Below, piece by piece: positions 316 through 37,440 of a stretch of DNA of 37,603 bases. The position numbers and the translations under genes are program-made. This DNA is from a virus: the IMG/VR virus record IMGVR_UViG_3300018494_000062; one strand, written 5' to 3'. The notes beneath the pieces are model-generated. The model did no database searches, was not told the DNA's origin, and was given only the letters and a program-made list of their open reading frames with translations. Position 1 is the first letter of the stretch; the number at the start of each line of letters is the position of its first letter.

Positions 316-345
316 TTGAAAAATATACCCAGCTGGGTATATAAT
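316..345 (+). promoter_or_regulatory. Sigma-A/sigma-70-type promoter of the accessory operon
   Basis: TTGAAA (316-321), an 18-nt spacer, then TATAAT (340-345). The first downstream ORF starts at 392. Confidence 0.6.
324..341. promoter_or_regulatory. Perfect 18-bp palindromic operator candidate inside the promoter spacer
   Basis: TATACCCAGCTGGGTATA is its own reverse complement. It fills the -35/-10 spacer and overlaps the -10. Confidence 0.6.
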
Positions 346-391
346 AAGAACATAAGGAACGGCACAAGCCGAAAAGAAAGGAATATGAAAT

Positions 392-517
392 ATGAAAAAG
401 GTTAAAATTTACAGATTGTCAATAGGTGGTTATTTTCTCGGAAACGAACTTGAACTTTGCAAACAGTATTGTTTAGACCATAATTGCACATACAGAACAG
501 ATTACATTTATGTTTAA
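392..517 (+). CDS. 41-aa hypothetical protein
   Basis: My translation is MKKVKIYRLSIGGYFLGNELELCKQYCLDHNCTYRTDYIYV. AAAGGA lies 9 nt upstream. This is the first ORF after the promoter. No family recognised. Confidence 0.4.
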   Translation: MKKVKIYRLSIGGYFLGNELELCKQYCLDHNCTYRTDYIYV

Positions 518-533
518 TAAGAAAGGATGAAGA

Positions 534-650
534 ATGATGAACATATTGGAATACATAAACGAATTGATAGAACAGGGATATTTAGAAGAAGATGCAGAAA
601 GATGTGCTGATTACATGTTTTCTGATGAATGGGAAGGTGATGAAGAATGA
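534..650 (+). CDS. 38-aa highly acidic hypothetical protein
   Basis: My translation is MMNILEYINELIEQGYLEEDAERCADYMFSDEWEGDEE, with 14 D/E residues against 1 basic residue. GAAAGGA lies 6 nt upstream. The stop overlaps the next start (ATGA at 647-650). Confidence 0.5.
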   Translation: MMNILEYINELIEQGYLEEDAERCADYMFSDEWEGDEE

Positions 651-844
651 CTGAAGCACACCAAAGAGCAAAAAAGAAGTATAGAGCAAAATTAAAAAGG
701 TTTACAATTGAATTTTATCCAACAGAAGCGGAACTGATTGCACAAATTGAAAAACAACCGAAAAAGCAAACCTATATAAAAGATTTGATAAGAGCAGATA
801 TTGAAAGGAAAAGAAATGAGCAAATTCAGAACAAAACCATATAG
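647..844 (+). CDS. Ribbon-helix-helix (Arc/CopG-like) DNA-binding protein
   Basis: KKKYRAKLKRFTIEFYPTEAELIAQIEKQ...YIKDLIRADIER fits a basic N-terminus, a beta-strand and two helices. GGGAAGGTGA lies 6 nt upstream. It is translationally coupled to the preceding ORF. Confidence 0.6.
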   Translation: MTEAHQRAKKKYRAKLKRFTIEFYPTEAELIAQIEKQPKKQTYIKDLIRADIERKRNEQIQNKTI

Positions 845-1037
845 AAATGTGGGTGATCCGTCAAGCAAATATGGATATGACAAAGACGGAAAACAATTTG
901 AAGCGGATATTCAAAAGCACATTGATGATAGTGAAAAACTATATGTAGAATTCAAAGAATGGATAATGAAAAAACAAGTCACACCAGACAAGTTCAGAAA
1001 TTTATTTCGCAAATATTATGATGAATTTATTGCATAA
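816..1037 (+). CDS. 73-aa hypothetical protein
   Basis: The ORF-track frame is 801..1037. I prefer the ATG at 816 because AAAGGA lies 6 nt upstream. No family recognised. A terminator follows. Confidence 0.55.
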   Translation: MSKFRTKPYRNVGDPSSKYGYDKDGKQFEADIQKHIDDSEKLYVEFKEWIMKKQVTPDKFRNLFRKYYDEFIA

Positions 1038-1044
1038 AAAAAGT

Positions 1045-1077
1045 GGGGAACAGACAGAAGTCTGAACCCCATTTTTT
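1045..1077. terminator. Bidirectional terminator between convergent operons
   Basis: GGGGAACAGAC / GTCTGAACCCC stem with a 2-nt internal mismatch. It is flanked by an A-run upstream (1035-1042) and a T-run downstream (1072-1077), so it can serve both strands. Confidence 0.65.
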
Positions 1078-1163: not shown

Positions 1164-2069
1164 TCAAACCATCCCCAAAAGTTTCTTCCATGTTGTCTGT
1201 CTGGCTGTGATTTCGCCATCAACAACACATTTGTTTTTTTGCTGATACTTTTTGACTGCTTCTGTGAATTTTGCCCCTGCAATTCCGTCTATTGCACCGC
1301 AATTGAAGCCAAGTGCATTCAATCTTTTTTGCAATGGTTTCACCACAGCATGTCTTCTGTTGATTTTGGAAGACACTGTGACAGTCTTTGAAAGTGTTTC
1401 TGATCCTGCAATTCCGTCTACTGATGCACCAGTTGCTTTTTGCACTTCTTTGATGAATGCTTTCAAATCATATGCACCAGAAGTGTCATTTTTGACCACT
1501 GTTGCATTTTCAGAACTGTTTGATGTAGTTTGTCCATCAAGTCTGTTCCAAAACTCTGACAGCCATTTTGCATTGTTTCCTGGTGTTCCGCACCAATAAG
1601 CAGGACATCTTTTGCCAACCACATCAAAATGACGGATGACATTTTCTTTCGGCACGTTGTATTTTTTCATCAAATCCCTTGTCAATTCAATTGCATTTTC
1701 AATTGTTTTTGCTGAAGGATAGATTGTGCCATTCTTCACATCATCACACAATTCAATGCTGATGCTGTTTGTGTTGGTGCATTTTTTGTAATATGCACCG
1801 CCACCTGTTTTGTCGCAATCATTATATTTGCCACCACCAACTGCCCATGCAACAAACCCATCTGGCACAGACTGTGTGACAGAATCACCATCAACAAAAT
1901 AATGTGCAGAAGCACCGACTTTGTTATTTGCAAAATATTTGCCATTGTTCTCGTCTGTGTCACCATCATTTGCAGTGAAATGAATGACAATGTATTTGAT
2001 TTTGTTTGTGTTTCTGCTTGCACCATAATTTGATTTATTTGCAAGCTTTTCTTTTAATACATAACCCAT
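1164..2069 (-). CDS. Endolysin: N-acetylmuramoyl-L-alanine amidase (Amidase_2/PGRP-type) with two C-terminal PG_binding_1-like repeats
   Basis: YIVIHFTANDGD...ASAHYFVDGD...AWAVGG is the amidase_2 pattern. VDGIAGSETL and IDGIAGAKFTEAVKKYQ...VDGEI are PG-binding repeats. Start moved to the ATG at 2069 (AAGGGGTG 7 nt upstream) from the track start at 2120. Confidence 0.9.
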   Translation of the reverse strand: MGYVLKEKLANKSNYGASRNTNKIKYIVIHFTANDGDTDENNGKYFANNKVGASAHYFVDGDSVTQSVPDGFVAWAVGGGKYNDCDKTGGGAYYKKCTNTNSISIELCDDVKNGTIYPSAKTIENAIELTRDLMKKYNVPKENVIRHFDVVGKRCPAYWCGTPGNNAKWLSEFWNRLDGQTTSNSSENATVVKNDTSGAYDLKAFIKEVQKATGASVDGIAGSETLSKTVTVSSKINRRHAVVKPLQKRLNALGFNCGAIDGIAGAKFTEAVKKYQQKNKCVVDGEITARQTTWKKLLGMV

Positions 2070-35802: not shown

Positions 35803-37440
35803 ATGTATAGGTATGAAAAAATTGAATTCAGACCAGAAGAAATTCTTGACTATTTGAGAAAGTCGCAAAGTGATGATCCATTGCTGACAGTTGAAGAAGT
35901 TCTTGAAAAACATGAAGCAATTTTGGATGAATGGGATGAAAGACATCTTGATGCAAAAGTTCCTGAAGAAAATCGTTTTCGTGAGATTGTATCAGGTGAA
36001 ACAATCAAAGAAAGACCAGAAATCAACAAATTGCTTCGATTGATTGAATCCCCAAAATATAAAGCTGTGAAAGTGGTTGAACCGCAAAGGTTAACTCGTG
36101 GGGATTTGGAAGATATTGGGCGAATAATGAAATTGTTCAAACATACAAACACCTATGTTATAACACCAGAAAGAATTTACGATTTAAGGGATGAATATGA
36201 CTGGAATGCAATTGAAAGTGAATTGAAAAGGGGAAATGACTATCTTAATTATTACAAGAAAATTCAAAACAGGGGAAGATTGCTTTCAGTCAGTCAAGGA
36301 AATTATTTAGGTTCTGTTGCCCCTTATGGATTTGACAAAACATATGTGATGGATGGCAAAAGAAAATGTCCAACACTAAAAGAAAACAAAGAAGAAGCGG
36401 ATGTTGTAAGACTGATATTTGATTTGTATGTAAACAAAGACATGGGATGTGCAAAAATATGCAACTATCTTGACAATATGGGCATAAAAGCACCAAAAAG
36501 CAAACACTGGTCACAAGCTGCATTGAAAGACAAACTTTCCAATATACACTATATTGGCAAAGTCAAATGGAATTGGCGAAAAACCATTGATGTTGTTGAA
36601 GAAGGTGAATTCATCAAGACAAGACCAAGAGCAAAAATTGGTGAATATTTAATCTATGAAGGAAGACATGAAGGAATTGTTCCAGAAGACCTTTTCAATG
36701 CAGCACAAGAAAAAAGGGGAAGAAATCACAGAGCCAAACCAACAACAAAAATCAGAAATCCACTTGCAAGCATTTTGTGGTGTAAATGTGGAAGGTCAAT
36801 GTCATATAGAACATTTAAGAACAAAGACGGAAGTGAAAAAACAGCACCCAGATTGTCTTGTGAAGGTCAGAAATACTGCAAAAATGGTTCTTGCACATAT
36901 GAAGAAATAATCAATAGAATTGTAGAAGTTTTGGAACAATGCATTGAAGATTTTGAATTGAGAATCAAAAATGATGAAGGTGATTCAATCAAATTGCATG
37001 CAAGTTTGATTAAAAACCTTGAAAAGAAAATGAAAGACCTGGAAGCAAGAGAACTGGCACAATGGGAAGCACAATCACATCCTGATCCTTCACAAAGAAT
37101 GCCAGTGGAAATCTTCAGAAAGTTGAATGAAAACTTGCTGAAGGAAAAAGAAGAAATCCAACAGGCACTGTGCAAAGCACATGCATCCATGCCAGAACCA
37201 GTTGATTATGAAGAAAAAATGAAAAAATTCAAAGATGCCCTTGAAGCATTAAAGAATCCTGAAGCGGATGCAGCAACACAAAACAAACTTTTGAAGGAAT
37301 GTATTGACCGCATTGAATACCAAAGGGAAAAACCTGAAAGAATGAAAAAAGAACCTGGCGAACCAAAAGGAACAAGATTTGAAGTCGGTGGTGACTGGAC
37401 AAAACCGCCAATACACCTTGATATTAAACTGAAAGTATAA
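35803..37440 (+). CDS. int: Large serine recombinase (integrase)
   Basis: The catalytic motif is YLRKSQSD. A recombinase domain (YGFDK...VVRLIFDLY) follows, then a zinc ribbon (CKCGRSM...CEGQKYCKNGSC) and a long C-terminal coiled coil. AAGGAAGGTGA SD. Confidence 0.92.
   Translation: MYRYEKIEFRPEEILDYLRKSQSDDPLLTVEEVLEKHEAILDEWDERHLDAKVPEENRFREIVSGETIKERPEINKLLRLIESPKYKAVKVVEPQRLTRGDLEDIGRIMKLFKHTNTYVITPERIYDLRDEYDWNAIESELKRGNDYLNYYKKIQNRGRLLSVSQGNYLGSVAPYGFDKTYVMDGKRKCPTLKENKEEADVVRLIFDLYVNKDMGCAKICNYLDNMGIKAPKSKHWSQAALKDKLSNIHYIGKVKWNWRKTIDVVEEGEFIKTRPRAKIGEYLIYEGRHEGIVPEDLFNAAQEKRGRNHRAKPTTKIRNPLASILWCKCGRSMSYRTFKNKDGSEKTAPRLSCEGQKYCKNGSCTYEEIINRIVEVLEQCIEDFELRIKNDEGDSIKLHASLIKNLEKKMKDLEARELAQWEAQSHPDPSQRMPVEIFRKLNENLLKEKEEIQQALCKAHASMPEPVDYEEKMKKFKDALEALKNPEADAATQNKLLKECIDRIEYQREKPERMKKEPGEPKGTRFEVGGDWTKPPIHLDIKLKV

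Follow-up and report, generated by a model that had tools for sequence, protein, structure and literature searches.

The stretch analysed here, hereafter the window, is the 37,603-nucleotide (nt) virus record IMGVR_UViG_3300018494_000062 of IMG/VR, and our subject is the operon of four small genes at its positions 316-1077. The operon opens with a promoter whose spacer is filled by a palindrome, the candidate operator, and it encodes three small proteins, here called cargo, together with a basic protein of 65 amino acids (aa), the candidate regulator. A first-pass annotation, made from the letters of the DNA, had likened the unit to the operons of anti-CRISPR (acr) genes and their anti-CRISPR-associated (aca) regulators, with the 65-aa protein as a ribbon-helix-helix (RHH) autorepressor. 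We found that the regulatory architecture of this proposal stands, with a conserved anchor protein, a palindrome in the promoter, an operator that is inherited together with the regulator and variable cargo, whereas the cargo of the window matches no known anti-defence family.

The promoter lies on the plus strand at 316-345 and is of the sigma-70 type, with TTGAAA (316-321), an 18-nt spacer and TATAAT (340-345). It matches the consensus at 11 of 12 positions and is the top promoter-like site in positions 1-2500, on which direct reading and a promoter scan agree. The palindrome first seen as an 18-bp element, TATACCCAGCTGGGTATA at 324-341, is the core of a perfect 20-bp palindrome, ATATACCCAGCTGGGTATAT, at 323-342, a strandless element whose right arm covers the first bases of the -10 hexamer. 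This candidate operator is present in a single copy in the window, also when up to three mismatches are allowed, and shuffled sequences yield an expectation of zero. The window carries one operator only, with no second copy upstream, as is the case for the K9/Y24 subtype, described below, to which it belongs. A reading of the spacer palindrome as a terminator was rejected, because the inferred start site is downstream of it and because it holds a fixed register within the promoters of different loci.

Downstream of the promoter follow four open reading frames (ORFs) on the plus strand, each having a match to the Shine-Dalgarno (SD) sequence AGAAAGGAGG 5-9 nt upstream of its start. The first, orf41 (392-517; SD GAAAGGAA at 376-383), encodes a cysteine-containing cargo protein of 41 aa, and the second, orf38 (534-650; SD AGAAAGGA at 520-527), an acidic cargo peptide of 37 or 38 aa with 14 Asp or Glu residues and one basic residue, an arginine. 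The gene for the candidate regulator occupies 647-844 (SD GAAGGTGA at 633-640) and is followed by orf73 at 816-1037 (SD GAAAGGAA at 803-810), which encodes the third cargo protein, of 73 aa. The coupling of the genes is as tight as first described: the start of the 65-aa gene overlaps the stop of orf38 as ATGA, and orf73 starts 29 nt inside the 65-aa gene (816 versus 844). Homologue searches place the products of all four ORFs in conserved small-protein families.

The unit closes with a bidirectional intrinsic terminator at 1038-1077, active in prediction on both strands, which the operon has in common with the convergent endolysin gene (1164-2069, minus strand). Its hairpin folds at -21.4 kcal/mol on the plus strand and -19.7 kcal/mol on the minus strand (z-scores -5.5 and -6.4), with seven A before it and six U after it, and each strand therefore offers the stable hairpin and U-run of an intrinsic terminator; a simple terminator scanner had skipped the site owing to a 2x2 internal loop. 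The promoter with its spacer palindrome, the four coupled genes and the terminator thus bear out the first-pass annotation as far as sequence can establish anatomy and promoter-operator geometry.

The link between the palindrome and the 65-aa protein comes from the relatives of the latter. About 100 loci encoding such relatives were fetched, and 98 distinct loci (420 kb; single loci are given L numbers below) were scanned with the consensus TATAYMCC-N0-6-GGKRTATA at a threshold of at least 14 of 16 matches. We found 78 palindromes, compared to 9.4 in shuffles, which is an enrichment of about 8-fold, and their placement is directional: about 64 of the 78 precede the regulator start by 0-1.5 kb, most often by 250-750 nt, and 5 are found downstream of it. 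Furthermore, 39 of 46 palindromes stand inside a promoter of the sigma-70 type with a score of 9 of 12 or better, whose spacer is 17 bp long in almost every case. In homologous loci the centre of the palindrome falls 5.5-7.5 bp upstream of the start of the -10 hexamer, and its right arm provides the first bases of TATAAT. The 65-aa family hence displays what is looked for in Aca-type systems, namely an inverted repeat at the promoter that is conserved together with the regulator. From zero to five small cargo genes separate the promoter from the regulator gene, which is the last gene in 32 of the 49 mapped operons and the first in 6 of them; in six loci the operator-promoter lies 20-40 nt upstream of the 65-aa gene and drives it directly.

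Operator and protein also vary together. Operators of the TATACCC-N4 form (or with CCCC-N2) pair with proteins that have Lys at position 9 and Tyr at position 24 (K9/Y24), those of the TATACCC-N2-GGGTATA form with L9/P24 proteins, and the TATATCC, TATATCA and TATAACC forms with proteins that have I, A or V at position 9 and S at position 24 (Fisher p = 2e-4, uncorrected for phylogeny). In the S24-type loci (L011, L012, L024, L032, L087, L090, L105, L113, L114, L125, L133 and L134) a second, slightly degenerate operator is found 41-46 bp upstream of the first, a distance of about four helical turns, which is the arrangement expected for cooperative binding of a repressor. Collectively, sequence comparison points to the 65-aa protein as the fixed element that anchors about 100 operons, and to an operator and a regulator that are inherited together.

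Several observations weigh against such a dedicated pairing of operator and protein. The subtypes are largely clades, so that the covariation amounts to a few co-inheritance events at the level of clades; it is still informative, because the intervening cargo is not co-inherited. Of the 85 loci whose upstream sequence extends to 400 nt or more, about 37 lack a palindrome above threshold in the 1.5 kb before the regulator gene, and those among them that were viewed by eye contain degenerate palindromes. A search of IMG/VR for TATACCC-N2-4-GGGTATATAAT returned 26 stretches, only 3 of which encode the 65-aa family, and about 12 other stretches have a TTGACA-palindrome-TATAAT promoter in front of small cargo, often a Lys-rich peptide with one membrane pass, and a small helix-turn-helix (HTH) protein; the TATACCC type of palindrome is therefore not exclusive to the 65-aa family. 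Finally, profile and fold searches recognise the 65-aa protein as a member of no DNA-binding family of any kind.

Because TATACCC promoters also front HTH operons, we kept the alternative that the palindrome is the operator of another factor, be it a host regulator, a phage repressor or an unlinked HTH protein, and that the 65-aa protein has no regulatory role. The occurrence of TATACCC-N4-GGGTATA promoters before operons with a small HTH gene and without the 65-aa family fits this alternative, and so does the silence of the databases on DNA binding by the 65-aa protein. However, the directional enrichment of the palindrome near the 65-aa gene, the inheritance of operator subtype and spacing with protein subtype across variable cargo, and the six loci in which the operator-promoter directly precedes the 65-aa gene all speak for the 65-aa protein as the ligand, and the window encodes no homologue of the HTH proteins of the L051, L067 and L008 family. 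Furthermore, a partial convergence of operators is expected, because the overlap with TATAAT forces the TATA arms and leaves about three free core bases. We consider another factor improbable. The reverse test, from operator pattern to regulator, lowered our confidence in the association and did not overturn it.

In L037 and L038, the orf73 homologue is followed by an HTH protein of the same family as those of L051, L067 and L008; the operons of L037 and L038 occupy the same position between integrase and lysin as that of the window but have a different palindrome, CTACGCATTGCGTGG. In three loci (L037, 2439-3545; L038, 1738-2159; L039, 3086-3935) an orf73 homologue precedes a 60-67-aa HTH protein, of the IPYRTLQNW type or of the HTH_3 family, behind TTGACA-CTACGCATTGCGTGG-TATAAT, and this looks like a non-orthologous replacement of regulator and operator around the same cargo. 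A strong promoter with a palindrome in its spacer, variable cargo and a small regulator, either HTH or RHH-like and interchangeable, thus form a design that is general among these phages. In many operons with a palindrome in the promoter, of the RHH as well as the HTH type, the first gene encodes a peptide of 33-49 aa that combines a Lys-rich N-terminus with a single hydrophobic helix, such as MAKRKKKKGDKVDHTNFITAIVTLITSVINLIILLSDRGH (L036, 215-337; L050, L053, L056, L057, L060, L121 and L133). This peptide, absent from the window, may serve in exclusion or as a small toxin of the membrane.

The family of the 65-aa protein counts 145 homologues, mostly of 55-65 aa, that share the invariant motif QPKKQTYIKDLIR; the invariant residues are A8, Y12, F23 and P25 and the stretch Q37-P-K-K-Q-T-Y-I-K-x-L-I-R. 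An AlphaFold2 model built with 40 homologues (mean predicted local distance difference test score, pLDDT, 84) has a helix at 3-15, an extended segment at 16-26 and further helices at 27-36 and 43-64; pLDDT is about 80-90 over the extended segment and the last two helices, and the monomer model shows no called strand. The extended segment, R18-F-T20-I-E22-F-Y-P25, alternates polar and hydrophobic residues and ends on a proline, and its R-F-T-I-E-F-x-P pattern resembles the strand of Arc, which reads Q-F-N-L-R-W-P. The invariant KKQT motif stands at the N-terminus of the last helix, a place at which RHH proteins contact a DNA phosphate. From this pattern we consider an RHH-type fold with an extra N-terminal helix likely but unproven, and we infer from the same protein's association with the palindrome that it binds DNA and represses.

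The RHH label of the first-pass annotation is thus upheld by the predicted secondary structure and finds no counterpart in profile or fold searches. Among 40 members of the family there was no match to an RHH family of Pfam, and NCBIfam gave none. The 65-aa protein had no match among the PDB sequences, either by phmmer or by hmmsearch with the family profile, and hhalign of the family profile with the Arc and CopG sequences returned a probability below 1%. Foldseek of the monomer model against PDB and BFVD yielded nothing below E = 5, although the model of a single chain serves poorly as a query when the protein is an obligate dimer. The sole library match was phrog_14312, a family of unassigned function in PHROGs. 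A role of the 65-aa protein as the recombination directionality factor of the serine integrase was rejected, as many sister loci are far from any integrase and the association with the operator points to transcriptional control. Some members of the family are fused to C-terminal extensions, for a total of 88-199 aa (L010, 4001-4600; L032/L033; L034, 4001-4267; L090, L092 and L110; proteins P0114, P0119 and P0120).

In contrast to the fixed regulator, the cargo turns over almost completely. The 114 cargo proteins of the sister operons fall into 104 clusters, 92 of them singletons, and a Pfam family was found in 7 of 92 cargo representatives scanned (TnpV, resolvase, YopX, ArdA, HNH/NUMOD4 and MazE/AbrB). 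The closest homologue of the window's regulator, in L036 (71% identity, same C-terminal tail), stands behind a similar operator-promoter and has wholly different cargo.

Of the window's own cargo, the product of orf41, a gene that public gene callers do not call, has three homologues of 43 aa (51-78% identity) with conserved C23, C27 and C32. One orf41 homologue, P0175 of L141 (2501-3611), is encoded directly before a DUF932 gene, as part of a long cluster of same-strand genes whose last member is a phage lysozyme gene. The orf38 family, searched with a 53-aa homologue from L015 as the query, has at least nine members, in which MNILDYINELIEQGYSEEDAERCADCLFS is followed by an acidic and Tyr-containing tail; because the homologues begin at the second Met, the true start of orf38 may be Met-2, at 537. 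The orf73 product has 45 homologues with the invariant motif VGDPSSKYGYDKDGKQFEADIQ, and as these keep a common MSKF start, the start of orf73 is fixed at 816, inside the regulator gene. Its AlphaFold2 model is of low confidence over residues 1-25, where the invariant motif lies, followed by helices at 26-52 and 57-72 that make up a helical hairpin, and we speculate that the protein may present a short partner-binding motif on a small scaffold. Elsewhere orf73 is found with small HTH regulators, and it is found once more in an RHH operon, that of L121, upstream of the regulator. One homologue belongs to an early-gene cluster, near a dGTP-diphosphohydrolase-like gene and a DNA methylase gene, with no adjacent regulator.

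This distribution bears on the toxin-antitoxin module that the first-pass annotation had named as an alternative. Such a module, of type II, would pair an RHH antitoxin at 647-844 with an overlapping 73-aa toxin, and the 29-nt overlap and the antitoxin-first order of the two genes are what it would look like; moreover, RHH antitoxins that autorepress through promoter palindromes are common. However, an orf73 homologue is present in only one other (L121) of the 49 mapped sister operons, and there upstream of the regulator, and the usual place of the regulator is at the end of the operon. Because orf73 also occurs in the early cluster without a regulator, or next to unrelated HTH proteins, and because the partners of the regulator vary, a toxin role of orf73 is strongly argued against. 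No toxin family was matched by the orf73 product in the family libraries or in PDB. Rather than a conserved and exclusive pairing of antitoxin and toxin, we found partners of the 65-aa gene that differ in nearly every locus, and we regard a toxin-antitoxin module as highly improbable.

The same turnover bears on a switch resembling immunity I of phage P22, in which one of the small cargo proteins would be an antirepressor or a modulator of the lysis-lysogeny decision held in check by the RHH protein. In P22 immI the Arc operator lies inside the Pant promoter, a geometry close to that of the window, and the phage of the window is temperate and encodes a serine integrase and an HTH protein of the CI type. 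Yet cargo that differs in nearly every phage is not expected of a core part of a switch, orf73 is also found among early replication genes without a regulator, and no cargo resembles Ant or the known antirepressor families. We hold this switch to be quite improbable.

As to what the cargo does, the link to anti-defence is an indirect one. In a sister operon, that of L026, two tandem operator-promoters precede ArdA, a phrog_3754 protein and the regulator. The L026 ArdA matches PF07275 with 52.8 bits against a cut-off of 27 and is labelled "anti-restriction protein" in PHROGs. Furthermore, in L068 and L069 an orf38 homologue directly follows ArdA in an opposite-strand operon, whose promoter has a pre-(-35) block like that of the window (ACTTTGGTTACTTTGCCGA-TTGACA) but another palindrome, ATACTTGTGCAAGTAT. 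With ArdA as cargo of one sister operon and as neighbour of the orf38 family, a role of the cargo in counter-defence or host takeover is the most likely one, and it is the weakest step of our interpretation. The recurrent phrog_3754 cargo of L013 (3551-3988) and L026 (3549-3941), of 131-146 aa, has a conserved Cys...His pattern, GDCVIRA ... H..V..DG.YYD.W, which on reading by eye suggests a papain-like peptidase.

The products of orf41, orf38 and orf73 had no match to an Acr, anti-defence or defence family in Pfam, PHROGs, NCBIfam, PADLOC, PDB or BFVD; PADLOC gave nothing above noise for the four ORFs, none of the four matches PF07275, and over all sister operons an anti-defence family was matched in 1 of about 92 cargo families. 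For the orf73 product, the best PDB sequence match was a nucleoporin coiled coil (E = 0.06), which is not significant, and Foldseek of its model against PDB or BFVD returned nothing below E = 5. These figures fall on the side of the objections. The acidity of the orf38 peptide by itself does not make it a DNA mimic, and none of the evidence points specifically to CRISPR. An anti-defence role of the cargo, and an anti-CRISPR role especially, is plausible but unproven.

A lysogenic-conversion or superinfection-exclusion moron, also raised at first, would explain the operon by the benefit that expression from a resident prophage brings to the lysogen, through defence, exclusion or altered host physiology and not through action against host defences, with the regulator setting a constant low level. 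Placement on the opposite strand, at a prophage end or between modules and with a separate promoter and terminator, is the classic layout of a moron, and the steady expression that results from autorepression suits a lysogen. Furthermore, the sister operons that start with Lys-rich membrane peptides (L036, L121 and L133, and L050, L056, L057 and L060 of the HTH type) look more like exclusion or toxin genes than defence inhibitors. The window's cargo, however, lacks membrane segments, and its PADLOC defence matches do not rise above noise; ArdA, a counter-defence protein, is cargo in one sister operon and a neighbour of the orf38 family. A near-consensus promoter under tight autorepression is, moreover, the pattern of acr operons (PMC13551039). 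On balance we judge a moron unlikely.

The position of the operon is that of a prophage arm. The exact 65-aa protein is present on 24 public contigs, one of which, L003, is a 37,621-bp circularly permuted assembly of the window's prophage. The gene order in L003 is a CI-type HTH gene, a gene for a 190-aa protein, a gene for a 545-aa serine recombinase, a SHOCT gene, the operon, the convergent endolysin gene, a holin gene and tail genes. In the integrated copies L001 and L002 the SHOCT gene adjoins host genes (GH127, aldolase, AraC and a 138-aa fragment of an Mn-catalase). Because of the circular permutation of L003 and the host genes that abut SHOCT in L001 and L002, the window comprises an entire prophage, of about 37.6 kb, in which the operon lies at the arm between the attachment site and the lysin gene; this agrees with the place between the endolysin gene and attP that had been proposed. 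The site of the cassette is this interval between integrase and lysin in the window, and in other phages the interval between the late regulator and the terminase.

The phage is temperate and of the Oscillospiraceae type (Clostridia). Members of the 65-aa family were found only in phage-like contigs and metagenome-assembled genomes of Clostridia (Oscillospiraceae, Acutalibacteraceae and others). A nucleotide search of positions 1-1200 against 50,697 GenBank phages gave no match, nor did tblastn of the 65-aa and 73-aa proteins against the GenBank phages or of the 65-aa protein against 72,556 plasmids of PLSDB.

The large serine recombinase of 545 aa is encoded at 35803-37440 of the window. At 4954-5370 of L001 and L002 the prophage end adjoins the Mn-catalase ORF of 138 aa, and because this ORF looks truncated, integration into an Mn-catalase gene is suggested. 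Upstream of the operon, a mini-gene unit at 22-266 of the window encodes a 52-aa SHOCT-domain protein at 61-219 (PF09851, 26 bits, slightly below the cut-off of 27). It has a TATAAT of its own at 27-32 and a strong terminator at 228-255 (-22.5 kcal/mol), and because of this terminator we take it for a unit distinct from the operon. A SHOCT copy that is 81% identical stands in the equivalent place in L025, and an unrelated gene for a helical protein of about 50 aa in L018 and L020.

Two further elements flank the promoter. Directly before the -35 hexamer, on the plus strand at 298-315, lies a conserved block, CTTTGGTTATTTTGTCAA, which is near-identical in other loci: a block like it precedes the -35 hexamer in L005, L011 and L128 (RHH operons), in L051 (an HTH operon) and in L068 (an ArdA operon), and most of the remaining RHH loci have a second variant, ATATTTGTGCATTATYCCATC. 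The conservation spans 18-22 nt across operons that differ in operator and even in the type of regulator, and the block could be an UP element, a second site or one for another factor, or the 5' recombination flank for cargo exchange. Downstream of the -10 hexamer, the 5' leader of the window (346-391) contains on the plus strand a hairpin, CGGC-ACAA-GCCG, at 360-371 (-6.1 kcal/mol, z-score -4.1), and the leaders of sister operons have either a G/C hairpin or a CACCCC box at this place. Many sister leaders begin with RACAUARAGAAC, which is followed by the short G/C hairpin or the CACCCC box about 20-30 nt past the -10 hexamer. The leader element may stabilise the mRNA or control its translation, the significance of the hairpin being uncertain; a scan of positions 1-1300 against Rfam at E <= 1 gave no match, and therefore no known riboswitch or small RNA in the leader.

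Taken together, these results make it probable that the locus is an autonomous, autorepressed cassette of accessory genes with Aca-like logic at the arm of a prophage. According to this model, the sigma-A RNA polymerase of the host would fire the promoter at 316-345 and produce a single transcript that runs to the terminator at 1038-1077, and from this transcript the three small cargo proteins of 41, 38 and 73 aa and the 65-aa basic protein would be translated. The latter, most likely as an RHH-type dimer, would then bind the 18-20-bp palindrome between the -35 and -10 hexamers and block the polymerase, so that expression would peak in a burst once the genome has entered and then be clamped at a low level. 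The conserved frame consists of the promoter block and the regulator gene, and the intervening cargo is freely exchanged among phages. We regard the regulatory part of this interpretation as well supported by the comparison of the loci.

Autorepressed counter-defence operons are the main route to new anti-CRISPR and other anti-defence proteins, whereas most of the anchor regulators known so far, Aca1-14, are of proteobacterial origin, and nearly all of them belong to the HTH class. The locus offers a candidate regulator-operator pair that has no detectable similarity to annotated families and belongs to uncultured gut-type Clostridia phages, together with about 100 sister operons, more than 100 small cargo families of no assigned function and one direct tie to ArdA. 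If the 65-aa protein binds the operator and the cargo acts on defences, the protein motif QPKKQTYIKDLIR combined with the operator TATAYMCC..GGKRTATA over the -10 hexamer would be a searchable marker for anti-defence genes in Bacillota phages, and the promoter with its regulator a compact and portable autoregulated element. If instead the cargo consists of genes that benefit the lysogen, the same marker would map a hot spot of morons.

A bolder reading goes further, and we offer it as a tentative one that we find doubtful. The 65-aa protein would found a Bacillota-specific family of Aca-like autorepressors, probably RHH and so far unannotated, whose conserved frame has the pre-(-35) block and the TATAYMCC..GGKRTATA operator at one end and the regulator gene at the other. 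This frame would mark a hot spot at which recombination exchanges more than 100 small-protein families among the Clostridia phages of gut and rumen. Most of the cargo would then be new defence inhibitors, among them the 73-aa VGDPSSKYGYDKDGKQFE protein and the acidic 38-aa peptide that goes along with ArdA, and in a group of phages without cultured representatives the family would serve as an anchor from which anti-defence genes could be found through guilt by association.

Among known systems, the Arc protein of P22 offers a close analogy: a protein of about 55-65 aa with a pattern of strand, proline, helix, loop and helix, an operator within the promoter, a temperate phage and negative autoregulation, which for the window would apply by likeness. 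Unlike Arc, with which no sequence or profile similarity was detectable (hhalign, as above), the 65-aa protein has an additional N-terminal helix, and unlike the fixed antirepressor that is the cargo in P22, the cargo here is hypervariable. The small RHH proteins CopG (pMV158) and omega (pSM19035), from plasmids among the mobile elements of Firmicutes, silence their own promoters by way of palindromes, pseudopalindromes or repeats over the promoter hexamers. In contrast to the present operons, they control genes of replication or partition, and CopG shares no profile similarity with the 65-aa protein (hhalign).

The sister operons further resemble ArdA operons, in that ArdA comes first behind the same type of operator in L026 and the orf38 family follows ArdA in L068 and L069 behind the same pre-(-35) block, whereas the window encodes no ArdA. 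With phage morons the cassette has in common the opposite-strand unit with its own promoter and terminator between conserved modules; unlike classic morons, it comes with a dedicated and conserved frame of autoregulator and operator.

In its logic the cassette agrees with the acr-aca operons, among which Aca14 (WP_005725436.1), an RHH protein of Pasteurella, binds an inverted repeat over the -10 of its own and of a neighbouring operon and represses both (Feussner et al. 2026, PMC13551039). That work, which relies on electrophoretic mobility shift and reporter assays in Proteobacteria, also found HTH Acas to be replaceable by RHH proteins (PMC13551039); a literature search on further Aca numbers (Aca15 and Aca16) returned only unrelated papers. 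As in acr-aca operons and that of Aca14, a small regulator, usually the last gene, is co-encoded with variable small cargo, an inverted repeat covers the -10 of a strong promoter, and additional operator copies are found nearby. As in acr-aca operons, too, one and the same cargo can go with regulators of either class, HTH or RHH, and regulator-cargo fusions occur (88-199 aa; L010, L032, L034, L090, L092 and L110), comparable to AcrIIA1 and AcrIF25. Unlike acr-aca operons, that of the window contains no validated Acr or other anti-defence protein, and its regulator is known here from its sequence. An Aca in the strict sense has a validated anti-defence partner and a demonstrated binding of the repeat, and on the first count the family offers an indirect case, the ArdA of one sister operon. 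Unlike for Aca14, the hosts are Bacillota (Clostridia) rather than Proteobacteria, and the operator of the window's family is of the TATACCC..GGGTATA form, compared to an Aca14 repeat described as AT-rich. The logic of autorepressed acr-aca operons is thus already known, and what appears to be new here is an Aca-like autorepressed cassette that is built on an unannotated family of regulators.

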